Shown: in pieces, positions 2,748 to 22,397 of the stretch
Position numbering within the stretch: the first letter of the stretch is position 1
Layout: every line of letters starts with the position of its first letter
Origin: Candidatus Saccharimonadota bacterium
Lineage (GTDB): Bacteria; Patescibacteriota; Saccharimonadia; Saccharimonadales; Saccharimonadaceae
Length of the DNA: 32,000 nucleotides
NCBI GenBank assembly: GCA_020160975.1
Contig: JAIUPJ010000001.1
Location: 390,001 to 422,000 of the forward strand
Reading direction: 5' to 3'
Position numbers and translations under genes: made by a program
The notes under the pieces: model-generated
Databases searched by the model: none
Seen by the model: only the letters and a program-made list of their open reading frames with translations
Told to the model about the DNA's origin: nothing

Positions 2748-3308
2748 TTACTTCTTGCGTTCGCGATATTCACCCGTCGCGGTATCGACAGAAATGATAT
2801 CACCTACCTTGATAAATGCTGGTACTTTCACGGTAACACCCGTCTCCAGAGTGGCGTCTTTGAGCACGCTACTCGTCGTATCACCCTTCACCACATCTTC
2901 GGCATAGGTGACTTCAAGATAAAGATTCTTTGGCAGCTCAACGTTGATAACTTTATCGCCAAAGAACTGCAGATTCAAGTTATCACCTTCTTTGAGATAA
3001 TTCTTCGCCTCATCAACTAGGTCGGCTGACAACTCAAACTGCTCAAAGCTCTCAGGATCCATGAAGAAAAACGCCTCGCCATCACTGTACAAGTATTGCA
3101 CTTCCCGGTTACGTACTTCGGCTGGCTCAATCTTGTCTGCGCCTTTATAGGTCTTAGGAATCACCGCACCCGTGATGAGATTCTTCAGTTTCACATTTAC
3201 AATCGACCCACCTCGACCCAGCACTTTTTGACCATACTCAATCACACGATACGGCTGTCCATCAATTTGGCACACTGTGCCTTTTTTTAGATCTGTTGGC
3301 TGATACAT
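2748..3308 (-). CDS. efp: elongation factor P
   Basis: 186-aa ORF that aligns over its full length with EF-P (DGQPYRVIEY...VKLKNLITG...YLYSDGEAFFFMD...VKVPAFIKVGDIISVDTATGEYRERKK). An AGAGGAA Shine-Dalgarno sequence lies upstream. Confidence 0.95.
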   Translation of the reverse strand: MYQPTDLKKGTVCQIDGQPYRVIEYGQKVLGRGGSIVNVKLKNLITGAVIPKTYKGADKIEPAEVRNREVQYLYSDGEAFFFMDPESFEQFELSADLVDEAKNYLKEGDNLNLQFFGDKVINVELPKNLYLEVTYAEDVVKGDTTSSVLKDATLETGVTVKVPAFIKVGDIISVDTATGEYRERKK

Positions 3309-3466
3309 AGTTTCATTCCTCTATAAATTTTCTACTGACTATTCTGGATGCTGTGCAGCGCAGATCGCGGAAGCGCTGAGCATTTTTAGTGAGTTGTATT
3401 GATGCGATACTACTCGCCAAAAAGCGGAAGTGCTGACAATGATATGCGCTGCAGAGCGCCAGAAAC

Positions 3467-3664
3467 TTAGCCGTGTGTCACAAACGGCATCAACGCCAAA
3501 TGCCGTGCACGTTTGATCGCAACGGCGAGTTGTCGCTGCTGCTTGGCGCTAAGACCAGTTTTTGCAACTGGCTCAATTTGACCGTAAATGTTGATGTAGC
3601 GGCTCAATGTCTTGACATCCTTGTAGTCAAAAAACACTGGTGCGTCTTTTTTAAATCGTTTCAT
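3467..3664 (-). CDS. rpsR: 30S ribosomal protein S18
   Basis: 65-aa ORF with [56 protein letters not shown] lies 4 nt upstream. It sits in conserved rpsF-ssb-rpsR order. Confidence 0.95.
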
Positions 3665-12687: not shown

Positions 12688-14808
12688 CTACTGCTGCTCA
12701 ATACCCTTCATCGTAAGGGAGAGGCGACCTTTTTCGTCGATGCCAGCAAGCTTGACGGTGACCATTTGGCCTTCTTTTAGCACATCGGTCACATTTTCAA
12801 CGCGCTGTTCGCTGATTTGGCTGATATGAAGCATGCCGTCGGTGCCTGGCATGATGTTGACGAAAGCACCAAAGTCCTTGATCGTGACGACTTTTCCGGT
12901 GTAGAGCTTGCCGACTTCTGGCTCCTCGGTAAGACCGCGAATCCATTCGAGAGCTTTCTCGATGCTCGCGGTGTCGTTTGAAGCAACGGTGATAAGTCCG
13001 TCATCCTTGATATCGATCATCGCACCAGTTTCACCGGTAATCTTGTTGATCGTCTCCCCGCCCTTGCCGATCACTGCACCGATTTTCTCAGGATTAATCT
13101 TGATCTTCTCGATACGCGGCGCGTAGGGACTAAGCTTCTCACGAGGTGCCGCAATAGTTGCGACCATGTGGTCGAGAATGTGCTTGCGACCGGGGCCAGA
13201 CTGCTTGATTGCATCCGCGAGAACAGAGACAGGCAGGCCGTGGACTTTCATGTCCATCTGCACCGCTGTAATACCATTTGCGGTACCCGTCACCTTGAAG
13301 TCCATGTCACCCGCAAAGTCTTCAGCATCGGCGATGTCGCTCAGCACGTAGTGCTTGTCGCCGTCAACCATCAGACCCATTGCGATACCAGATACCGGAG
13401 CCTTCAGTGGCACACCGGCATCCATCAGGGCTAATGTCGAGCTACAGGTCGCTGCCATACTCGTTGAACCGTTTTGGCTCATGATTTCAGTCACGCTACG
13501 GATGGCATACGGAAATTCTTCTTCGGTCGGCAGCACTGGAATGAGTGCGCGTTCTGCAAGATAACCGTGGCCGATTTCACGACGGCCTGGGCTACCAAGG
13601 CGGCGCACTTCACCTACCGTGTAGCCAGGTGCATTGTAGTGATGCATGTAGCGGCGCTCGCCGTCGGTGACTTCCATTGTATCTACAATCTGTGCAAAAC
13701 TGAGTGGTGCCAGCGTAACGATGTTCATGCCTTGTGTGACACCACGAGTAAAGAGGCTGGAGCCGTGGGTACGTGGCAGCAGGCCGACTTCGCTACTGAG
13801 CTCACGAATTTCATCCAGCTTGCGGCCGTCGGGGCGTACGCCGTCTTCGACTATGCCGCGGCGGACATCTTTGTGAAGCGCCATCGTGAATGCTTCATCG
13901 TATTCATCTTTCAATGCAGGATATTCTTCGACGCCAATCTTTTCAGTCATCGCTTCGTGGAATGTCCAGCGAAGTTCGTTGACCATCTCGTTGCGCTCTG
14001 GGTAGGCTTTGCGCAGTTTGTCGCCCAGCTTGCCTTTCACCCATTCATCAACTGCTTTTTGGATATCTTCATTTGGCAAAACTAGTTCATATTCTTGCGC
14101 TACTGGCGCCACCTTTGTGGCAAGCTCTCGCTGCAGTGAAATCGCCGGCTGGAAGGCTTTGAATGCCCAATCCATTGCGGCTACTAGATCGTCTTCAGAA
14201 ACTTCATTGGCACCCGCCTCTACCATCGTGATACCACTCTCGATGCCGGCCACCACAAGGTCAAGATCACTAGCCTCACGCTCCTCAGCGTTCAAAAATG
14301 CTTTGAATTCACCCTTGACCCGACCAACACGAAGTCCCGCCACTGGGCCGTCAAATGGCGTACCCGTAAGCATCAGCGCACTGCTGGCGGCGATCATTGC
14401 GACCATATCAGGGCGGAAATTTGGATCCATCGATAGCACGCTTGAAACCACCTGCACCTCTTGGCGATAGCCCTTCGGGAACAGTGGTCGAATCGGGCGA
14501 TCTATCAAACGACCGATTAAAATCGCTTCGTCGCTCGGACGACCTTCGCGCTTGATGAAGCGGCTGCCGCTGATCTTGCCCGCTGCATACATTTTTTCTT
14601 CGTAGTCGATCGACAGTGGGAAATAGTCGAGTACGACCGGTCGAGAGCCGACCATCGCCGTACCGAGCACCACGGTGTCGCCATAGGTAACGAGCACGCT
14701 CGCAGTAGTGCGAAAGCCAACACGGTTGACCTCAAGTGTCAATGGTTTGCCACAAAAATCAGTGGTAACAGAAATAATATCCTTGCCACTAGGGTTAATA
14801 ATACTCAT
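12688..14808 (-). CDS. pnp: polyribonucleotide nucleotidyltransferase (PNPase)
   Basis: It has two RNase PH domains plus KH (IGAVIGKGGETINKI) and S1 (GKLYTGKVVTIKDFGAFVNI) domains. I prefer the ATG at 14808 (MSIINPSGK) because a perfect AGGAGG (14817-14822) lies 8 nt upstream. The track's start at 14844 has no Shine-Dalgarno sequence. Confidence 0.95.
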   Translation of the reverse strand: MSIINPSGKDIISVTTDFCGKPLTLEVNRVGFRTTASVLVTYGDTVVLGTAMVGSRPVVLDYFPLSIDYEEKMYAAGKISGSRFIKREGRPSDEAILIGRLIDRPIRPLFPKGYRQEVQVVSSVLSMDPNFRPDMVAMIAASSALMLTGTPFDGPVAGLRVGRVKGEFKAFLNAEEREASDLDLVVAGIESGITMVEAGANEVSEDDLVAAMDWAFKAFQPAISLQRELATKVAPVAQEYELVLPNEDIQKAVDEWVKGKLGDKLRKAYPERNEMVNELRWTFHEAMTEKIGVEEYPALKDEYDEAFTMALHKDVRRGIVEDGVRPDGRKLDEIRELSSEVGLLPRTHGSSLFTRGVTQGMNIVTLAPLSFAQIVDTMEVTDGERRYMHHYNAPGYTVGEVRRLGSPGRREIGHGYLAERALIPVLPTEEEFPYAIRSVTEIMSQNGSTSMAATCSSTLALMDAGVPLKAPVSGIAMGLMVDGDKHYVLSDIADAEDFAGDMDFKVTGTANGITAVQMDMKVHGLPVSVLADAIKQSGPGRKHILDHMVATIAAPREKLSPYAPRIEKIKINPEKIGAVIGKGGETINKITGETGAMIDIKDDGLITVASNDTASIEKALEWIRGLTEEPEVGKLYTGKVVTIKDFGAFVNIMPGTDGMLHISQISEQRVENVTDVLKEGQMVTVKLAGIDEKGRLSLTMKGIEQQ

Positions 14809-14934
14809 ATCTTGAGCCTCCTTCTTGTTAGAATCACTCGCCATCTATCGAGGTAAGTAACGGGTAGAATCAGTTATCTCGCATGTAACTCGTTCTATCC
14901 ACCACTTACGCGCTGTGCGATCGTGACTCTCTGT

Positions 14935-14986: not shown

Positions 14987-15538
14987 ATGAACAATTCTTT
15001 GTATTCTCACGTTTTTACTCAGGACCAAATCGATGCGCGTATCGAAGAACTAGCTGCAGAGCTGCTCGCTGACTACTCAGACAAAAGTCCATTATTTGTG
15101 GCACTGATGCGCGGGGCGAATCCTTTTGCGAGCAAATTGATGTTTGCGCTGGCGCGGCAAAACCCCGACTTTCACCCCGAGCTCGACTATATGATGGTCA
15201 GTACCTACGGCCAGAAGCAGACCGCTAAAGAACCGGTAGTGGTGACCGACCTTGCACCGACAACTACTGTGTCAGGCCGCAATATCGTGGTAATTGACGA
15301 TGTGATTGATCTTGGTATCACATCAGACTTCGTCAAAAGTCTGCTGCTTGAGCGTGGGGCAAACAGTGTCAAACTCGCCGTTCTTGCTTCAAAAGCTGTG
15401 TCTTCTCGCATTTTACAGGCCGACTATGTTGGGTTTGAAGCCGGCGACAAGTGGCTCGTCGGCATGGGGCTCGACGATGCCAAAAGTGGCAACGAGCACT
15501 ACCGCTGGCTTGATGAAATCTGGGAGATTAAGCGCTAA
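14987..15538 (+). CDS. hpt: hypoxanthine-guanine phosphoribosyltransferase
   Basis: 183-aa ORF with the PRPP-binding motif IVVIDDVIDLGIT and a type-I PRTase pattern (YMMVSTYG, KWLVGMGLD). TATACT (14975-14980) lies 6 nt upstream of the ATG. Confidence 0.9.
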   Translation: MNNSLYSHVFTQDQIDARIEELAAELLADYSDKSPLFVALMRGANPFASKLMFALARQNPDFHPELDYMMVSTYGQKQTAKEPVVVTDLAPTTTVSGRNIVVIDDVIDLGITSDFVKSLLLERGANSVKLAVLASKAVSSRILQADYVGFEAGDKWLVGMGLDDAKSGNEHYRWLDEIWEIKR

Positions 15539-15539
15539 A

Positions 15540-16010
15540 CTACTGCAACAAGCGTGATAGATTTGTATGCAGGCGCTCGATACGACCATCTGGTGCGACA
15601 TGCTCACGAAGCTGCACCCTCGATAGCTTGCTCTCAGGCGTCATATCTCGCACATGAAGCGAGCAGTCAAGATCAGCGCACACGAGATATGACACTGACC
15701 GTCTGTCGCCTTTTGCAAAAGCGATTCGTGCCGCATTGTTTCCCCGCTGCCAGGTGGCGCAGAGGTCACAGATGATGCCGTCGGTACGACCAGTGCTGCT
15801 GGCGGCCTTTTTTGTGAGCGAAAATGGATAAAACAAATCTTCAAATAGCAGCACGCCTTCACTGTGAGATTTGTTCATGATTGCCAAAAAATCCCGCGAC
15901 TCTGGGTGCAAAATCTCACTAGGCACATACCGTAACTCACGAATAATCCGCGGCTTAATGCGGGCATTCTTGAGTGATGCTAGTAGGTCACTATTGCTCG
16001 GTAATTCCAT
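15540..16010 (-). CDS. FBP/FusB-type treble-clef zinc-finger protein (EF-G-binding protein family)
   Basis: 156-aa ORF. The C-terminal pattern CDLC...x29...CADLDCSLHVR...ERLHTNLSRLL matches my recollection of FBP_C domain proteins (CSLC...C.DL.CSLYVRG...NL..F). TATACT (16020-16025) lies 9 nt upstream of the ATG. Confidence 0.55.
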   Translation of the reverse strand: MELPSNSDLLASLKNARIKPRIIRELRYVPSEILHPESRDFLAIMNKSHSEGVLLFEDLFYPFSLTKKAASSTGRTDGIICDLCATWQRGNNAARIAFAKGDRRSVSYLVCADLDCSLHVRDMTPESKLSRVQLREHVAPDGRIERLHTNLSRLLQ

Positions 16011-16027
16011 TATCTTACTAGTATATG

Positions 16028-16531
16028 CTAGTCTGCTTTTGACTGAGAAACCGTCCGCTCAAGCACCAGATCAGGCTGACCGCTACTATAAAGATCTTCT
16101 AGCCCTACTTCACGGAACTTAAGTTTTTTCAAGAACTCAACCATAGCCCGATTCTCTGGCTTTGTATCTACAACAACTCGTGAAACATCAGGCAATTCCT
16201 GCTGCACGATATAGAGTAGCTGGACTGTTGAGAAGCGTCCAAAATCTCGCCGACGCACTTCTGGTGACATTGAAATATTTCGTATTCCGACACTCTCTGG
16301 TGACTCGATCTTAGCTATAGCCGACCCCACCACCTGACCTGCTTCAATCGCTGCGATACCAAACTTTCTCCCCATCACTAGGTCATGCTCGGTACGCTCT
16401 ACCCAGTCCTGATGCGCCGAACCGTAGTCAGCCTGCGTATCAATATAAAGTCGCGGCTGGCGTAAAAAATCAGCTACCTTTGCCGCAGATGAAGAGTTGA
16501 AGCTGTCGGTAAATCTGATATCAATCGGCAT
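16028..16531 (-). CDS. GNAT family N-acetyltransferase
   Basis: 167-aa ORF with an acetyl-CoA motif-A-like segment ISMSPEVRRRDFGRFS and a C-terminal ENRAMVEFLKKLKFREVG. An AAGGTAG Shine-Dalgarno sequence lies upstream. Confidence 0.7.
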   Translation of the reverse strand: MPIDIRFTDSFNSSSAAKVADFLRQPRLYIDTQADYGSAHQDWVERTEHDLVMGRKFGIAAIEAGQVVGSAIAKIESPESVGIRNISMSPEVRRRDFGRFSTVQLLYIVQQELPDVSRVVVDTKPENRAMVEFLKKLKFREVGLEDLYSSGQPDLVLERTVSQSKAD

Positions 16532-16540
16532 ACGCTACCT

Positions 16541-16642
16541 TTACGTAAAGATGTATTCAATCACCTCATCGCCACGGCGAGCGAGGTTTTCGATACCGTC
16601 AAGTTCTGTTGAATTCCCACCTGTGAAATCTTGTGAATTCAT
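16541..16642 (-). CDS. candidate 33-aa acidic small ORF upstream of the GNAT gene
   Basis: It translates as MNSQDFTGGNSTELDGIENLARRGDEVIEYIFT. The ATG lies 13 nt after a perfect TATAAT. Its stop codon lies 9 nt before the GNAT ATG and adjoins the GNAT Shine-Dalgarno sequence. Confidence 0.35.
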   Translation of the reverse strand: MNSQDFTGGNSTELDGIENLARRGDEVIEYIFT

Positions 16643-16655
16643 AGTTAACATATGC

Positions 16656-16684
16656 ATTATAGCATATTTTTGTATATATTGCAA
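16656..16684 (-). promoter_or_regulatory. sigma70-type promoter TTGCAA-N17-TATAAT
   Basis: The -35 element TTGCAA is at 16684-16679, followed by an exact 17-nt spacer and the -10 element TATAAT at 16661-16656. It sits in the 156-nt AT-rich spacer after the stop of the upstream GNAT gene. Confidence 0.6.
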
Positions 16685-16687
16685 CAT

Positions 16688-17359
16688 TTAGGCTAATTCG
16701 ACATGCGTTTCAGCCCATTTCAACACTTCGCGAGTGAGTTCTCGTGCTTCGACTGATTTACGTGTCGGACGATCATCGCGCCACCAGCGGTTCCAGGCCC
16801 AACTGGTAGGATTGAGGCACTCAAAGCACTCTTTGTGGTGGAGCCTGCCATCAAAAAATATATCATTGCGCTCGGTATAGACAGAGGTATACCCCACCTT
16901 TTCGATGGCTCGACGGCTGGCCTCGTTGCCCTCGTACACCGCTGACTTGAGACGGACAATCGCCATCTGCTCAAACGCATACCATGTCCGGGCTCTGTGG
17001 CACGCACCGGCAATCCCTTTGCCCCAGTAGTTCTTGTCAACAATGGTGATACCAGTAGTGGCTTGCTTGAGCGGCTCGAGCTCGATGTCCATGAGGCTCG
17101 TCGAACCAATGAGCGTGCGGCTGTCGTTCTCGATCACCCAAATCCCCCATACAACTCGCGACGTATCCTTAATCATTGCGTCGTACCATTCACTCTCTGT
17201 CTCAGCTGTTTGCACGCTCGCATTGCCAAGGTACTTCGTGACAGACATCTGCGCAAACCCTGGCACAAAAGTCGCGATTACCTCCTCACGAGTAAACGGT
17301 GCCATCTCGATAGAGAGCTTGTTATCTGTAGTTAACTTCATGATTGAGCCGAATGCCAT
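16688..17359 (-). CDS. GNAT N-acetyltransferase, RimJ/RimL-like
   Basis: 223-aa ORF with YWGKGIAGACHRARTWYAFEQMAIVRLKSAVYEGNEASRRAIEKVGY. An AGGAGA Shine-Dalgarno sequence lies 6 nt upstream. Confidence 0.75.
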   Translation of the reverse strand: MAFGSIMKLTTDNKLSIEMAPFTREEVIATFVPGFAQMSVTKYLGNASVQTAETESEWYDAMIKDTSRVVWGIWVIENDSRTLIGSTSLMDIELEPLKQATTGITIVDKNYWGKGIAGACHRARTWYAFEQMAIVRLKSAVYEGNEASRRAIEKVGYTSVYTERNDIFFDGRLHHKECFECLNPTSWAWNRWWRDDRPTRKSVEARELTREVLKWAETHVELA

Positions 17360-17405
17360 ACTATATCTCCTGTACGTATAATACTATCACAACTGAGTAA
17401 CTTTT

Positions 17406-17795
17406 TTACATATTTGTTACTAATTTTATCTCAATGGCGAGAGTATGGTACATTTCTTGATCTGCTGCTGAGTAATACTTGCTGTATTCAGCAACCGCTT
17501 CTTCTCTGCTCTGCGCGCGAGGAATTACTTGTCGATAGTCTTCGCTGGTAAGCATGTCGAGAAATGATGAATAGTGCCGGATACCGACAATCTCTACGCG
17601 TGCGACATCTGACTCACCATATCGCAATTGGCCGTCTTTACCGCGATAATCTCTGCGTAGACTGACGGTATCACCGACGCGGTAGTCGACAAATTTACCA
17701 CGATTCAGCCGTCCTTCGATTGTCTTGCGACCAGCAATGATATCGTCGAGCAGAGACGACTCGCGGCCAGCGCTCCAAACCTTAGCCACGCTCAA
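17406..17795 (-). CDS. ASCH (PUA-like) domain protein
   Basis: 129-aa ORF with IIAGRKTIEGRLNRGKFVDYRVGDTVSLRR, typical of ASCH. The track start is TTG at 17795. GTG at 17789 has GAGGA 6 nt upstream and may be the true start. Either start overlaps the end of the upstream Gre-like gene. Confidence 0.7.
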   Translation of the reverse strand: MSVAKVWSAGRESSLLDDIIAGRKTIEGRLNRGKFVDYRVGDTVSLRRDYRGKDGQLRYGESDVARVEIVGIRHYSSFLDMLTSEDYRQVIPRAQSREEAVAEYSKYYSAADQEMYHTLAIEIKLVTNM

Positions 17796-18246
17796 TCCTC
17801 ACTACTGTCGCTGATGTCGCTCCCAGCATTACAGTATCTCCTATCTTTTTGCCCACAACTGCGATTGCGACCGGCGTGTGGCGACTTACCCAATAGACGC
17901 CGTCGGTATGCTGTCCTGCCTTGTGCGTCCAATCACCAGCAATCAGATAGCGCTTACCGTTATCAAGCCCCACCGTGTCTCCAATCCCGATGACACCTCG
18001 CTTTTTCTTTGGCGGCGTCAGTGTACTAGTACGGATCAGTGTGCGCAATTGATGTAACTCTGCGGCGTACATGGCTTGCTTGTCTCGTACAGCCTCGAAC
18101 GGTGAGTTATCGTGCCAGGTCTCGCTACTCTGCGAGAATGCGTCGTTAAAATCAGGACCAAGATCTTGGATAAGTTGCTCGAGCTCACGCACCCTCTTCT
18201 CGGCGTAGTGCCGATCAATCGGCAAAAGATATACTTCCTTCTTCAT
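17782..18246 (-). CDS. GreA/GreB-family transcription elongation factor-like protein
   Basis: The coiled-coil tip segment is SSETWHDNSPFEAVRDKQAMYAAELHQLRTLI (compare DLSENAEYHAAKEEQ). The C-terminal domain reads IGDTVGLDNGKRYLIAGD...VSRHTPVAIAVVGKKIGDTV. I prefer the ATG at 18246 (MKKEVYLL) because AAGGAA lies 7 nt upstream. Confidence 0.7.
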   Translation of the reverse strand: MKKEVYLLPIDRHYAEKRVRELEQLIQDLGPDFNDAFSQSSETWHDNSPFEAVRDKQAMYAAELHQLRTLIRTSTLTPPKKKRGVIGIGDTVGLDNGKRYLIAGDWTHKAGQHTDGVYWVSRHTPVAIAVVGKKIGDTVMLGATSATVVRIERG

Positions 18247-18350
18247 AATTGTTTTCCTTAATTGATTAGTAGAGTATAGATGCAATTGGTTCGGCTCGTC
18301 CGGACATTGCGAAGTGTTGTTATCATATCATAGTCACAAAAATACGCGAA

Positions 18351-20267
18351 ATGAGTACTACTTATGGTATAATAGTGGCAAATACTACTCAAAAAAATAA
18401 AAATATGCTTCACCACTACCACCTTCGCTATGTGATCTCCCACCTCCTAAAAAATAGGCGCTTGGCGCTGATCATGAGCAGTGTCATCATACTGTCGGCA
18501 GTTGTGACCTATCTCGTGCTCCGGACGAGCCTCCCGCTGACTCTTCGCTATGATGCAACCGACGTCAAGGTAGACGGCCCTCTTGCCATCACCCTCAATC
18601 AGCTCACGCACCCTATTGCGACAGATAAGGTACAGGTCGCTCCTGCGGTCAAGGGGACGTGGCAATACATTCAGCCCGATGTCACCAAAAACCCAAAGCT
18701 TGTGTTCACACCAGCGACCTACCTCAAAGAACACACCACCTACACGGTCACCATCCCTAATACAAAACGAGTATTTGGTGTCGAGCTAGAGGTGCCGAAG
18801 GTCTCATTTACCACCGAACGCGCGCCATCGCTCAAGAGTTCTGGCGCTGCAAGCTGGAAAGATGGACAAGTGGTTGCAGCCGATGAAACGGTACGAGTCG
18901 ACCTCGTCTCACCAAACCGTCACTTGCGTAAGCTAGAGCTGCGCACGACACCAGAGCTAGAAACAGTAAGCTCTGTACAGCGGGACCAGAGCTACTCCTG
19001 GAGCCCAAAGAATGGCGTCTGGCCACAAAACACCGATGTGACCATAGAGCTCTATGACACAAAAAATGAGCAGTCTTTGCTTAAAAAAACCATTCATATC
19101 GCTGCCGAGCCAGCGCTTACCTCTCCGCTTGCCCAAGGCAATATAGACGAGCGCGAGAGCATCAGCCTCACTTTCGACCAACCCATCGACCATCAGACTG
19201 CTCGTATCGCATTTGAGTTACCCGGTAAAGGCACCTGGAAAGATGGTACAACCTACGTATTTACCCCTGATAAACTGGAGCCGAACAAGAGCTATCCCTA
19301 TACTGTCGCAAAAGCGATGCGCAGTCGTGACGGCGGTATTCTGCAGCATGATATCGCAGGCTCCATCTCTACCGTCGGACCAATTACGGTTGTGGGCACC
19401 TCACCTCGTGGTGACGGTCTTGCCCAGGCAAGCCAAACGCTGTCTTTTACCTTTAGTCGTCCGGTAGATCATGTATCGGCCGAGCAGCGCTTATCGGTGT
19501 CTGCAGGGCAAGTGACGGGCATGTCATGGCGAGGAAATACACTCTACGCAACTGTAGCAAACCTCGGGTATCAACAGACCATAAGCGCCGCAATCGCTGC
19601 TGGCGTGAAGAATACAACATTTGGAGTACCGAGCACTCGCAGTTTCTCGCTCAGCTTTACCACAGAAGTGCGCAGCGCTCGATTGGACATTCCATTCTTT
19701 CGACAGCAACACGCTGCGACATGCACTGCAGCAAGCCTCCGCATGGCACTTGCCTACCGTGGCGTCGGTGCCGATGAAATAGGACTCGTTAACGCTATGG
19801 GCTACAATCCGCGGAGCATCGACAAAAGCACCGACCCTCCCGTCTGGGACGACCCTCAAACGATGTTTGTTGGGTCAATCGATGGGTCTATCACTGGCGG
19901 GACCGGTGCAGGACCAGATGCTCCTCCTGTAGCAAAAGCAGCGCGTGCCTACGGCCGCAACGCAAGTGCGGTCACAGGAGTAGACGCCGGGTGGATTGCT
20001 CAACAGCTCTATAACGGCAATCCTGTGATCATGTTTGGCGCCTTCAGCCGAACGGGTACTATCACCTGGAAAACACCAAGCGGAGACACACGTATCATGA
20101 ACCTCACAGGCCATGCCACTACTGTCACGGGAGTGAAAGGTGAACCATCTAACCCGATTGGATTCTGGGTAAATGACCCTCTCCGTGGTATATCATACTG
20201 GACGACAGCTCAGGTCAACGCAAACATTGCGCTCGACCCGGACAGACAAGCGGTTGTCATCTACTAG
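18351..20267 (+). CDS. membrane-anchored protein with tandem Ig-like (SbsA/Big-type) domains and C-terminal peptidase C39-like (YvpB-type) domain
   Basis: 638-aa ORF with a TM segment (LALIMSSVIILSAVVTYLVL). It carries four repeats of the type xxLxFxxPxxH (LAITLNQLTHP, ISLTFDQPIDH, LSFTFSRPVDH). The C-terminal LDIPFFRQQHAATCTAASLRMAL...LTGHATTVTGV supplies a Cys/His pair. An extended -10 TGgTATAAT at 18365-18373 lies inside the first codons, so the ATG at 18405 may be the real start. Confidence 0.7.
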   Translation: MSTTYGIIVANTTQKNKNMLHHYHLRYVISHLLKNRRLALIMSSVIILSAVVTYLVLRTSLPLTLRYDATDVKVDGPLAITLNQLTHPIATDKVQVAPAVKGTWQYIQPDVTKNPKLVFTPATYLKEHTTYTVTIPNTKRVFGVELEVPKVSFTTERAPSLKSSGAASWKDGQVVAADETVRVDLVSPNRHLRKLELRTTPELETVSSVQRDQSYSWSPKNGVWPQNTDVTIELYDTKNEQSLLKKTIHIAAEPALTSPLAQGNIDERESISLTFDQPIDHQTARIAFELPGKGTWKDGTTYVFTPDKLEPNKSYPYTVAKAMRSRDGGILQHDIAGSISTVGPITVVGTSPRGDGLAQASQTLSFTFSRPVDHVSAEQRLSVSAGQVTGMSWRGNTLYATVANLGYQQTISAAIAAGVKNTTFGVPSTRSFSLSFTTEVRSARLDIPFFRQQHAATCTAASLRMALAYRGVGADEIGLVNAMGYNPRSIDKSTDPPVWDDPQTMFVGSIDGSITGGTGAGPDAPPVAKAARAYGRNASAVTGVDAGWIAQQLYNGNPVIMFGAFSRTGTITWKTPSGDTRIMNLTGHATTVTGVKGEPSNPIGFWVNDPLRGISYWTTAQVNANIALDPDRQAVVIY

Positions 20268-20709: not shown

Positions 20710-20976
20710 CTACTTTCGGAGGCCTAGTGTATCGAGTACTGCTCTGTAGGCGTCAAAATCGGTCGTTTCAAGGTAACGCAGGAGCTTTTTACGCTTCCCT
20801 ACCATCTGAATCAAACCACGGCGCGCCATATTGTCGTGCTTGTTGGCTTTGAGATGTTCAGTCACCTCTTTGATACGAGCCGTCAAAATCGAAATCTGAG
20901 CCTGTGGGCTACCGACATCGTTTTTTGCAACCTGAGTCAAAGCAATAGCTTTCGCTTTGTTATCTTTAGTGATCAT
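20710..20976 (-). CDS. rpsO: 30S ribosomal protein S15
   Basis: 88-aa ORF with GSPQAQISILTARIKEVTEHLKANKHDNMARRGLIQMVGKRKKLLRYL. TACAAT (20985-20990) lies 8 nt upstream of the ATG. Confidence 0.95.
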   Translation of the reverse strand: MITKDNKAKAIALTQVAKNDVGSPQAQISILTARIKEVTEHLKANKHDNMARRGLIQMVGKRKKLLRYLETTDFDAYRAVLDTLGLRK

Positions 20977-21002: not shown

Positions 21003-21689
21003 CTATCTTTCAATACTGAGGCCATCCAGCACCTTTGCCTGATCTATGTGCCAGGCCGCCACCCGTGTGCGTCGTAGCTCAGTGCAATATGCCTCTGTCC
21101 TCAACGCCTTCCCAAGATCGACCGCGAGGCTGCGGATATATGTCCCACTACTGACGTGGGTACGGATCTTGAGGTATGGATACGAATATTCCACCAATTC
21201 GAGCTCATAAATCGTCACGGTACGCTCAGGTATTTCGACTTCTTTACCGTCTCGAGCGAGTTTGTAGGCACGCTGCCCGTTAATCTTGATCGCACTAAAG
21301 ATCGGTGGTCGCTGGATGATTTCTCCAGTAAATTCAGCGAGAGCATCTGTAATCATACCCTCACTTGGGGCGATCTTATTTTGACACTCTGTAATTTCAC
21401 CTTCCGGGTCACCCGTCGTACTCGATGCCCCTAATCGAATCGTTGCTTCATACCATTTATCGAGTTTGAGAAATTCACCAGCTTTTTTGGTGGCATCGCC
21501 CACCAGGATAATCAAAAGTCCGGTCGCAAACGGATCAAGCGTGCCGGCATGACCGACGCGTAACTGCCGTTTGGTTGGCTTCTCACCTTTTTCCCTGTAT
21601 GCAGCCTTTATCTGTCCACGAAGCTTGGCGCAAACATCAAAGCTCGTCCAGCCTGCTGGTTTGTCTATGAGAACGATGTTGTCTGTCAT
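21003..21689 (-). CDS. truB: tRNA pseudouridine(55) synthase
   Basis: It has VLIDKPAGWTSFDV and the catalytic motif VGHAGTLDPFATGLLIILVG. I prefer the ATG at 21689 (MTDNIVLIDKP), which gives the usual TruB N-terminus. The track's start at 21815 would overlap the divergent gene by 100 nt. Confidence 0.9.
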   Translation of the reverse strand: MTDNIVLIDKPAGWTSFDVCAKLRGQIKAAYREKGEKPTKRQLRVGHAGTLDPFATGLLIILVGDATKKAGEFLKLDKWYEATIRLGASSTTGDPEGEITECQNKIAPSEGMITDALAEFTGEIIQRPPIFSAIKINGQRAYKLARDGKEVEIPERTVTIYELELVEYSYPYLKIRTHVSSGTYIRSLAVDLGKALRTEAYCTELRRTRVAAWHIDQAKVLDGLSIER

Positions 21690-21697
21690 ATATTTCA

Positions 21698-21705
21698 AGT
21701 ATACT
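21698..21705. promoter_or_regulatory. palindromic -10 box AGTATACT shared by divergent truB and PIG-L genes
   Basis: The intergenic spacer is 24 nt (21690-21713). TATACT reads on both strands (21700-21705 plus, 21703-21698 minus). Each copy lies exactly 8 nt from its ATG (21714 and 21689). Confidence 0.45.
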
Positions 21706-21713
21706 AGGTTGCA

Positions 21714-22397
21714 ATGAAAAAGATTATTATCGGCGTGTTTGCCCATCCAGACGACGAAGCATTCGGTGTTAGTCCCACGCTGATAAAAGAAATCCGCGAA
21801 GGCGCAGAGGCGCATCTAATCACACTAACGGCAGGCGAAGAAGGTGCTAATCCCGATAATCATGCAGAGCTCGGTACAGTGCGACTCCACGAGTGGCAGC
21901 GTAGCTGTGAGCTCATGGGCATCACTCGCTGTCATCACTTAGGATATACCGACGGCACACTCTCGAATACTGATCTTCTGTCTATCGCCGATCGGGTTGG
22001 CCAGCTGACAGAAAATATCTTGGCTACCACCGACAGCCCTATTGAATTCATGAGTTTTGATATGAACGGCATCTCTGGGCATATCGACCATATCGTTGCC
22101 TCGCGTGCTACTGCATTGGTATTTTATCGACTGAAACAACTGCTCCCCGAGCGCATCACGCGCTTGCGCCTCCGCTGCCTGCCCATTGAGCAAGTACCGC
22201 AACATACTATTGACTGGCTCTACATGGACGCAGGTCGCACGAGTGATGAAATCACCGAAGTTGTTGATGCACGGGAATACCACGATACAATTATCGAGGT
22301 GATCCGCAGCCACCATAGCCAGCGAGCTGATGGCGAAACGCATATCGCCCGATATGGCAACGATATCGGTATCAATCACTTTATCGTCAAGCAGTAG
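21714..22397 (+). CDS. PIG-L/LmbE family deacetylase
   Basis: 227-aa ORF with the N-terminal signature IGVFAHPDDEAFG and a downstream HIDH. Confidence 0.8.
   Translation: MKKIIIGVFAHPDDEAFGVSPTLIKEIREGAEAHLITLTAGEEGANPDNHAELGTVRLHEWQRSCELMGITRCHHLGYTDGTLSNTDLLSIADRVGQLTENILATTDSPIEFMSFDMNGISGHIDHIVASRATALVFYRLKQLLPERITRLRLRCLPIEQVPQHTIDWLYMDAGRTSDEITEVVDAREYHDTIIEVIRSHHSQRADGETHIARYGNDIGINHFIVKQ

Follow-up and report, generated by a model that had tools for sequence, protein, structure and literature searches.

Six small genes in a variable interval of the truB-rpsO-pnp operon of a Saccharimonadaceae bacterium

Layout of the locus

The genes described here form a compact group of six open reading frames (ORFs) on the minus strand of an assembly (GCA_020160975.1) from a Candidatus Saccharimonadota bacterium of the family Saccharimonadaceae. 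The window analysed is a stretch of 32,000 nucleotides (contig JAIUPJ010000001.1, positions 390,001 to 422,000), and the six ORFs occupy its positions 15540-18285. By its homologues, the window belongs with Saccharibacteria of the Candidatus Saccharimonas type (Patescibacteria). In the direction of transcription they encode a Gre-like factor, an ASCH-domain protein, a GNAT acetyltransferase (GNAT1), a 33-amino-acid small protein, a second GNAT acetyltransferase (GNAT2) and a zinc protein of the FBP_C family. A first-pass annotation made from the sequence alone had described six packed minus-strand frames, and all six lie at the coordinates it gave. Its family labels (Gre family, ASCH, two GNATs and a treble-clef zinc protein of the FBP_C type) are borne out by Pfam, PDB, structural and comparative evidence. 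It had also proposed that the genes act as one functional unit, either a protection island or an acetylation module. This proposal fails on comparison of neighbourhoods: across about 30 related loci, the genes turn up mixed, are exchanged for others or are missing. The six-gene arrangement is species-specific, and no conserved operon or functional cluster is found beyond the strain level.

Along the minus strand, the window carries DNA polymerase III delta, truB, rpsO, a PAS gene, a plus-strand Big_5/C39-like gene and the Gre-like gene, followed by ASCH, GNAT1, the small ORF, GNAT2, FBP_C, a plus-strand HGPRT gene, pnp, UDG, RNase J and FtsK. The truB gene (21003-21815; Pfam TruB_N, E 4.8e-52) precedes rpsO (20710-20976, minus strand), an 88-amino-acid ORF for ribosomal protein S15 that is called at the same position in the related loci L083 and L084. 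The downstream counterpart of this anchor is pnp, encoding polynucleotide phosphorylase (12688-14844, minus strand), which shares 80-92% identity with the genes of related loci, whose products show an RNase_PH/KH/S1 architecture in Pfam. In the window, rpsO and pnp are about 5.9 kb apart with nine genes between them, so the cluster sits inside a split truB-rpsO-pnp operon. In three more distant Saccharibacteria (L039, L041 and L058), truB, rpsO and pnp are contiguous and Gre is located elsewhere.

By a count on the raw ORF list, the minus strand holds approximately 30 of the approximately 34 likely genes of the window. Cumulative GC skew declines over almost the entire length of the window. 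Because a shared strand is the local norm, tight same-strand packing is no evidence for an operon.

Gene content of the interval in related loci

The comparison covers 80 species-representative loci selected with a Gre profile, six strain-level or close loci and five loci reached through FBP homologues at 51-58% identity, with about 16 kb examined per relative. Window proteins were placed on the relatives by tblastn and iterative hidden Markov models (HMMs), yielding an order table of 34 loci. The conserved backbone is truB and rpsO, then Gre, then pnp and UDG, with a distance from Gre to pnp of 120 nucleotides in L018, 185 nucleotides in L022 and up to 5.3 kb in L005. The interval contains NUDIX, Ham1, HGPRT, AAA_33 kinase, CYTH, radical SAM, PAS, MarR and WhiB genes in various relatives, together with inositol monophosphatase, aminotransferase, Cu-oxidase_4, three types of GNAT, ASCH, FBP_C and many proteins without a match.

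Each of the window genes recurs somewhere in the 34-locus table, and the full six-gene order is found only in strains of 95-97% DNA identity (L081-L083). At 80% Gre identity (L084-86), the overlap between Gre and ASCH is kept, an opposite-strand NUDIX gene replaces GNAT1, and an unrelated 292-amino-acid protein replaces GNAT2. Even among the close strains the arrangement ends abruptly in one case: L082 (5320-10101) departs from the window at about 15574, right after FBP_C, where HGPRT and pnp give way to genes for a 282-amino-acid protein, a member of the Beta-lactamase2 family and an ABC transporter. The 3' end of FBP_C in this strain looks like a recombination breakpoint.

FBP_C keeps a constant position. 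Each of the 14 loci in which it was detected has it between rpsO and pnp, with or without Gre. This includes the five loci reached through FBP homologues, four of which have no Gre in the interval. Conversely, no FBP gene occurs within 8 kb in those Gre-selected loci where Gre is away from pnp. FBP_C therefore tracks rpsO-pnp rather than Gre or GNAT. GNAT2 precedes FBP_C only in the window's own strains, and a different GNAT follows FBP_C in L016 and L019. The co-occurrence of GNAT and FBP that the first-pass annotation asked to have checked does not extend further, with a GNAT neighbour in none of the five loci at 51-58% identity; since GNATs make up about 10% of interval genes, an FBP-GNAT association was judged not significant.

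The identity of FBP_C and ASCH to the window proteins stays flat (about 47-56% and 58-60%, respectively) whether the adjacent Gre is 72% or 42% identical (loci L003-L031). This suggests that the accessory genes have been exchanged among lineages or evolve at differing rates.

A Y1 transposase of the IS200/IS605 type and a Fic-domain gene are present in the interval of two relatives (L088, 4539-5150; L089, 6275-7075), consistent with a site of gene traffic. A mobile island was nevertheless rejected for the window itself, where no GC deviation is seen at the cluster and no meaningful direct or inverted repeats flank it.

The Gre-like factor

The Gre-like gene (17782-18246, minus strand) has an ATG start and encodes 154 amino acids; its assignment draws on profile, structure and homologues. 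Matches in the curated libraries are weak. With the C-terminal GreA_GreB model of Pfam the score is 20.9 bits (cut-off 26.9), the GreA_GreB_N model is unmatched, and the NCBIfam greA model (TIGR01462) gives an E value of 9e-8 and 32 bits against a cut-off of 139. These scores are offset by profile matches in the PDB and by structural superposition. A 13-sequence profile finds Gfh1 (6.5e-5) and GreA (3.5e-4), and an AF2 model with a pLDDT of 90 consists of two helices (residues 9-42 and 48-73) joined by a tip (43-47) and a beta-rich C-terminal domain. Full-length TM scores in Foldseek are 0.79 for GreA, 0.75 for Gfh1, 0.70 for GreB and 0.70 for E. coli GreA (1grj).

The 122 homologues are about 150 amino acids long. 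The alignment of the Saccharimonas family shows QSSETWHDN(S/A)PF at the tip without exception. The motif, unchanged across Patescibacteria and Bacteroidota, is shared by Gre-like proteins from other Patescibacteria, from two Bacteroidota and from one gammaproteobacterium, the last a 381-amino-acid multi-domain form. Further SETWHDN-type genes were seen in L043, L054, L060 and L074. Two acidic tip residues (D41 and E44 in E. coli GreA) serve cleavage stimulation in canonical factors. The acidic residues E42 and D46 of the SETWHDN tip are invariant, but they are spaced one residue further apart than in DxxE.

In L079 (3793-4739), a divergently oriented SETWHDN-type gene adjoins a canonical GreA with the tip GDLSENSQY. 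The side-by-side occurrence of the two types indicates a paralogous lineage, in keeping with the 'paralogue' label of the first-pass annotation. On alignment, the Gre-like gene is best described as a distinct SETWHDN-tip subfamily, paralogous to canonical GreA. The 32-kb window contains no canonical GreA. A literature search with poor coverage turned up nothing on the SETWHDN-type subfamily.

The ASCH protein

The ASCH gene (17406-17789, minus strand) encodes a protein of 127 amino acids with a Pfam ASCH match of E 1.8e-9. Its GTG start is preceded by GAGGA with a 6-nucleotide spacer and overlaps the Gre-like gene by 8 nucleotides. Of the 8-14 nucleotides of overlap originally proposed, the lower figure is the one called in relatives, and 14 nucleotides would require an alternative TTG start at 17795. 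The same 8-nucleotide overlap is repeated in L082, L083 and L084-86 and is confined to the window clade and the L084 clade. The pairing of Gre-like and ASCH genes holds to this extent; elsewhere the orders differ (Gre-Ham1-ASCH in L004 and L005, NUDIX-ASCH-Gre in L030, and ASCH-HGPRT...Gre in L028), and most loci lack ASCH.

The protein carries the GxKxxExR octapeptide as AGRKTIEGR, and its closest solved relatives in the PDB are PH0355 (2z0t, 1.3e-11) and PF0455, both from Pyrococcus. The lysine and glutamate of this motif form the catalytic dyad of Glu-type (GKER) ASCH deacetylases acting on N4-acetylcytidine (ac4C), and ASCH proteins of diverse origin, including some from Pyrococcus kukulkanii, all stripped ac4C from tRNA in vitro (bioRxiv 10.64898/2026.02.27.708502). 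The ASCH proteins EOLA1 and YqfB are reported to function in the salvage of ac4C.

Nucleotide-sanitising or salvage enzymes, namely Ham1/ITPase, NUDIX and HGPRT, neighbour ASCH in L004 (8468-9419), L030 (4815-5599, where the NUDIX gene overlaps by 4 nucleotides), L084 (7458-8326) and L028 (560-1484). Overall, ASCH adjoins Ham1, NUDIX and HGPRT more often than it adjoins GNAT, a hint that its role may lie in the recycling of modified nucleosides and not in a partnership with GNATs. The acetyl writer and eraser pairing put forward in the first-pass annotation is further weakened by L081, a strain of about 96% DNA identity. Its ASCH gene (3153-3542) has a stop at codon 11, and GRKTIEGR has become GRKTIKAR, with lysine in place of the motif glutamate. 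Judging from this single metagenome assembly, the gene is probably a pseudogene, unless the assembly is in error, and with the same caveat ASCH would therefore be dispensable.

The internal promoter and the 33-amino-acid protein

A sigma-70-type promoter, TTGCAA-17-TGcTATAAT, is predicted at 16684..16656 on the minus strand, with 10 of 12 consensus positions and an extended -10 TG. In a DNA alignment of nine loci (TTGCAx-17-TGnTATAAT), TATAAT is invariant, the -35 element is conserved and the extended TG is present in most. The start of the small ORF, ATGAATTCACAAGA, follows about 13 nucleotides past the -10 element and lacks a Shine-Dalgarno sequence. This distance implies a very short leader, and the mRNA is probably near-leaderless.

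The small ORF (16541-16642, minus strand) encodes the acidic 33-amino-acid protein MNSQDFTGGNSTELDGIENLARRGDEVIEYIFT, with the consensus MNSQ[DE]xxGGNSxxLDGIxNLxRRGDEVIEYIFT. Ten orthologues are available, and all ten have exactly 33 codons. Variable columns are distributed over the three codon positions as 12/10/24, pairwise codon differences comprise 361 synonymous and 338 non-synonymous changes, and the other frames hold stops. The fixed length, the third-position excess and the interrupted alternative frames together argue for a protein; an RNA or leader element was rejected on these grounds. By these signatures, the ORF is taken to be a genuine conserved protein under purifying selection, and both the ORF and the consensus-like promoter reported in the first-pass annotation are conserved in relatives.

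Iterative HMM searches find the small ORF in 14 loci, or about ten distinct genomes once near-identical strains are collapsed. They include L001, L002, L003, L005, L008, L010, L011, L012, L082 and L084, and all belong to a Saccharimonas-level clade with Gre at least 68% identical. Gene callers report it in L082 and L084 and otherwise mostly miss it. A protein-database search with a 48-amino-acid extended frame returned 4 entries only, and the small ORF is therefore rarely annotated. Neither Pfam nor padloc has a match for the protein. The gene that follows it varies between GNAT2, pnp and uncharacterised proteins of 292, 366 or 469 amino acids; because of this variation, it is no dedicated leader or antitoxin for GNAT2.

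The two acetyltransferases

GNAT1 (16688-17359, minus strand; 223 amino acids) belongs to the Acetyltransf_3 family (RimJ/RimL/SpeG-type; Pfam PF13302, E 1.1e-17) and has a C-terminal extension of about 60 amino acids. It follows ASCH after a gap of 46 nucleotides, which holds no promoter or terminator motif. The best PDB matches are YdaF (1nsl, 4e-7) and SpeG, and the best NCBIfam scores are 25-32 bits against cut-offs of at least 93, with no RimJ or RimL model matched. The 'RimJ/RimL-like' label given in the first-pass annotation is valid at the level of the Pfam family alone and does not by itself tie GNAT1 to ribosomal proteins. GNAT1 reappears in the rpsO-pnp interval of L011 (47% identity) and L014 (59% identity).

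GNAT2 (16028-16531, minus strand; 167 amino acids) starts 9 nucleotides past the small ORF and is a divergent member of the superfamily (Pfam Acetyltransf_1, E 7e-5; score 23.5 bits, cut-off 20.7). It is weakly RimI-like, with a PDB match to 9mto at 7e-3 and a match to TIGR01575 at 1e-3 and 19.2 bits against a cut-off of 86.4. Neither GNAT reaches an NCBIfam equivalog cut-off, scores being 5-10 times too low. Beyond the window's own strains, GNAT2 was found in L001 only.

The FBP_C protein

The last of the six genes (15540-16010, minus strand) begins 17 nucleotides after GNAT2 and encodes a stand-alone FBP_C zinc protein of 156 amino acids. Its Pfam match to PF16571 (E 1.2e-11; score 44.8 bits, cut-off 27.2) spans model positions 31-152 of 155. 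The FusB/FBP-type assignment of the first-pass annotation holds for the domain, its zinc cysteines and the 17-nucleotide gap, and it requires one correction: only the C-terminal domain is present, and FusB's N-terminal bundle of four helices is absent. The cysteines are arranged as CxxC-x26-Cx4C, and 20 homologues show no change at C81, C84 and C116 and almost none at C111. The AF2 model has a pLDDT of 90, and its sole meaningful Foldseek match is FusC (2yb5_F; probability 1.00, TM 0.53, root-mean-square deviation 3.2 Å over 129 columns). Searches of the PDB with the single sequence or a 20-sequence profile did not detect FusB or FusC, or any other PDB sequence, and FBP_C is therefore tied to FusB and FusC by Pfam and structure only.

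Its 238 homologues are mostly about 156-160 amino acids long (range 150-174) and bear the NCBI name 'FBP domain-containing protein', under which no literature was found. FusB-type proteins free EF-G from fusidic acid, and the binding of FusB to EF-G relies on species-specific determinants in EF-G domain IV (PMC3352095). A second source likewise reports rescue of EF-G from fusidic acid by FusB-type proteins (PMC12008383). Given this species-specific recognition, EF-G binding is not to be assumed for FBP_C.

Neighbouring genes and other features

The HGPRT (hypoxanthine phosphoribosyltransferase) gene (14987-15538, plus strand) is convergent with FBP_C, with 1 nucleotide between the two stop codons. 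It matches Pfam Pribosyltran (E 7.8e-18) and, under its cut-off, the NCBIfam HGPRT model (E 2.7e-31). HGPRT is a common resident of the rpsO-pnp interval and was found in 17 related loci. On the other side of the cluster, a plus-strand gene (18351-20267) is divergent from the Gre-like gene. Its 638-amino-acid product combines three Ig-like repeats of the Big_5 family with a Peptidase_C39_2 domain at the C terminus. The gene is kept in the window's strains and absent from the 80%-identity clade (L084-86).

No known RNA element was detected in the whole window by Rfam at gathering thresholds or by a tRNA scan. The anti-phage defence models of padloc match none of the six proteins, nor the Big_5/C39-like neighbour.

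Interpretation

The comparative data are best explained, with fairly good confidence, by six independent small accessory genes that occupy a plastic, lineage-specific stretch inside the truB-rpsO-pnp operon and do not constitute a single dedicated system. According to this explanation, an interval would have opened within the normally contiguous operon of Saccharimonas-type Saccharibacteria. The stretch reads as at least two transcription units, a division suggested by the internal promoter that speaks against the single operon first envisaged. In the first unit, the Gre-like gene would be translationally coupled to ASCH through the 8-nucleotide overlap, and GNAT1 is probably read through with them, because neither a promoter nor a terminator motif interrupts the 46-nucleotide gap. 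The second unit would start at the predicted conserved strong promoter and comprise the near-leaderless 33-amino-acid gene, GNAT2 and FBP_C.

Family membership suggests what the individual proteins may do. The coiled-coil tip of the Gre-like factor, with E42 and D46 of SETWHDN, would enter the secondary channel of RNA polymerase. ASCH is probably an amidohydrolase of N4-acetylcytidine, either as the free nucleoside or within tRNA, a role that would fit its nucleotide-salvage neighbours HGPRT, NUDIX, Ham1 and pnp. GNAT1 and GNAT2 would each acetylate some substrate, and FBP_C is predicted to be zinc-stabilised and probably EF-G-binding.

Several observations weigh against independence of the six genes. 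Gre-like, FBP_C, HGPRT, NUDIX, ASCH and GNAT1 genes recur in the rpsO-pnp interval over deep divergence (Gre down to about 42% identical, FBP about 50%), and this recurrence could mean selection for co-expression with rpsO and pnp instead of inherited synteny. FBP_C directly follows Gre after a 54-nucleotide gap in L016 and L019. ASCH, where present, is at most one gene away from Gre, and the overlap of the two indicates that they are genuinely co-expressed, within the window's clade if not beyond it. Two distinct GNAT families adjoin FBP_C in separate lineages, namely the window clade and L016/L019. Finally, genes scored as missing are missing from a span of about 16 kb per relative and may lie elsewhere.

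These observations lend some weight to a second explanation, in which the rpsO-pnp interval of Saccharimonadales is a co-regulated bay for accessories of gene expression and of RNA and nucleotide turnover, so that location matters while membership varies. Its residents would include the Gre-like factor, FBP_C, ASCH, HGPRT, NUDIX and Ham1. We regard it as unlikely, though worth keeping in view. In its favour are the return of the same families to one interval in many orders over deep divergence and the position of FBP_C between rpsO and pnp in 14 of 14 loci. Gre and FBP_C are neighbours in L016 and L019, and ASCH adjoins or overlaps NUDIX or Ham1 in L004, L005 and L030. A nucleotide-recycling theme is common to pnp, HGPRT, NUDIX, Ham1, an HD_3 nucleotidase and UDG; Saccharibacteria rely on nucleotide salvage, and the ac4C salvage ascribed to EOLA1 and YqfB points the same way. 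The genomes of Saccharibacteria are, however, highly syntenic, so a shared location may be mere inheritance. Many residents do not fit the theme, including PAS, WhiB, MarR, aminotransferase, fatty-acid desaturase, ABC transporter, pilin-like and transposase genes. The interval genes lie on both strands with separate promoters, and in L039, L041 and L058 the operon is contiguous and Gre is elsewhere.

A more specific form of this idea is doubtful, and decidedly so. It holds that selection keeps the genes of the interval together so that, during epibiotic growth, they are co-regulated in the control of transcription, translation and RNA recycling, with the Gre-like factor and FBP_C as lineage-specific regulators of RNA polymerase and EF-G. 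FBP_C would then bind EF-G as a housekeeping rather than a resistance factor, ASCH would hydrolyse ac4C as one of several nucleotide-sanitising enzymes, and the 33-amino-acid protein would be expressed from its near-leaderless promoter.

The idea put forward in the first-pass annotation, in which the genes act as one operon that serves either as a dedicated ribosome and RNA polymerase protection or antibiotic-tolerance island or as an RNA-acetylation module with GNAT writers and an ASCH eraser between two factor-binding proteins, is very improbable on the evidence assembled here. Every family assignment behind it stands; ASCH proteins are ac4C deacetylases and FusB-type proteins relieve EF-G of fusidic acid (PMC3352095). 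Tight packing and the Gre-ASCH overlap would also suit it, as would the beta-lactamase-like gene and ABC transporter directly after FBP_C in L082. Yet the gene set is kept only among strains of 95-97% DNA identity, both GNATs are exchanged at 80% Gre identity, and five more distant loci have FBP_C without an adjoining GNAT. ASCH is a probable pseudogene in a sister strain that retains the rest of the cluster, a conserved internal promoter divides the genes, and no defence or resistance model was matched. The acetylation module faces a further difficulty. TmcA, the ac4C writer known from bacteria, is a large protein in which a helicase is fused to a GNAT, and GNAT1 (223 amino acids) and GNAT2 (167 amino acids) are single-domain proteins.

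A GNAT toxin-antitoxin pair of the TacAT, AtaRT or KacAT type, with the small ORF as the acidic antitoxin before an aminoacyl-tRNA-acetylating toxin and a promoter of its own, was rejected as highly improbable: the small ORF, the 9-nucleotide gap and the 167-amino-acid GNAT all stand behind a strong promoter, GNAT toxins are similar in size to GNAT2 and the pair recurs in L001, but the small ORF mostly occurs without GNAT2, followed by pnp or unrelated genes (L002, L003, L005, L008, L010, L012 and L084), its product has no match to RHH or DUF1778 antitoxins, GNAT2 is unmatched by toxin models and bears its best, weak likeness to RimI, and padloc returned nothing.

The explanation by independent accessory genes makes this locus an ordinary plastic patch of small genes, as the comparative data indicate, and not a notable protection or RNA-acetylation operon. 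Individual residents are of interest in their own right. A stand-alone FusB C-domain protein at a fixed chromosomal site by rpsO and pnp in an uncultivated lineage bears on the native role of FusB-type proteins. The Gre subfamily with an invariant, one-residue-longer SETWHDN tip beside canonical GreA, the conserved 33-amino-acid protein with its own strong predicted promoter that gene callers mostly miss, and the opening of the rpsO-pnp operon by a variable region in genomes of the Saccharimonas type are modestly useful observations. None of these four overturns current understanding.

Comparison with known systems

The Gre-like protein has the two-domain build of GreA, GreB and Gfh1, with an antiparallel coiled coil at the N terminus and a globular domain at the C terminus within about 150 amino acids, and it keeps acidic tip residues in E42 and D46. 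It differs in the tip itself, where SETWHDN(S/A)PF exceeds the canonical D-x-x-E-N (GDLSENAEY) by one residue, and in the response of the curated libraries: the N-terminal domain is unseen by Pfam, and the C-terminal Pfam and NCBIfam scores remain under their cut-offs.

Among ASCH ac4C amidohydrolases, which include E. coli YqfB, T. thermophilus TthASCH, the Pyrococcus ASCH proteins and human EOLA1/TRIP4, the window protein shares the GxKxxExR signature with its lysine and glutamate. It belongs to the Glu-type (GKER) group and not to the Thr-type YqfB subgroup. Its gene has probably been inactivated in the sister strain L081.

GNAT1 resembles GNATs of the RimJ/RimL/SpeG type in its WGKG acetyl-CoA loop and in its similarity to YdaF, SpeG and one RimJ/RimL-family structure, and it differs from them in the extra C-terminal region of about 60 amino acids. 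GNAT2 is faintly similar to RimI-type GNATs, but its acetyl-CoA motif is degenerate.

FBP_C resembles FusB, FusC and FusD in passing the Pfam threshold, in a predicted alpha/beta fold that is otherwise unique to the FusC C-terminal domain, and in four conserved cysteines of the treble-clef pattern CxxC...CxnC; the zinc motif of FusB is CXXC-X23-CX5C (PMC3352095). A basic N-terminal helix and loop of FBP_C are analogous to the lysine-rich H5 loop of FusB. In contrast, FBP_C agrees with FusC at only about 12% of positions, and its gene is chromosomal, in a conserved rpsO-pnp position in Saccharimonadales, rather than carried on a resistance element.

With respect to the truB-rpsO-pnp operon, the window keeps the canonical order and orientation of all three genes. 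The Saccharimonas clade differs from the canonical arrangement in that a variable set of genes, running on both strands over 0.6-8 kb, lies between rpsO and pnp.

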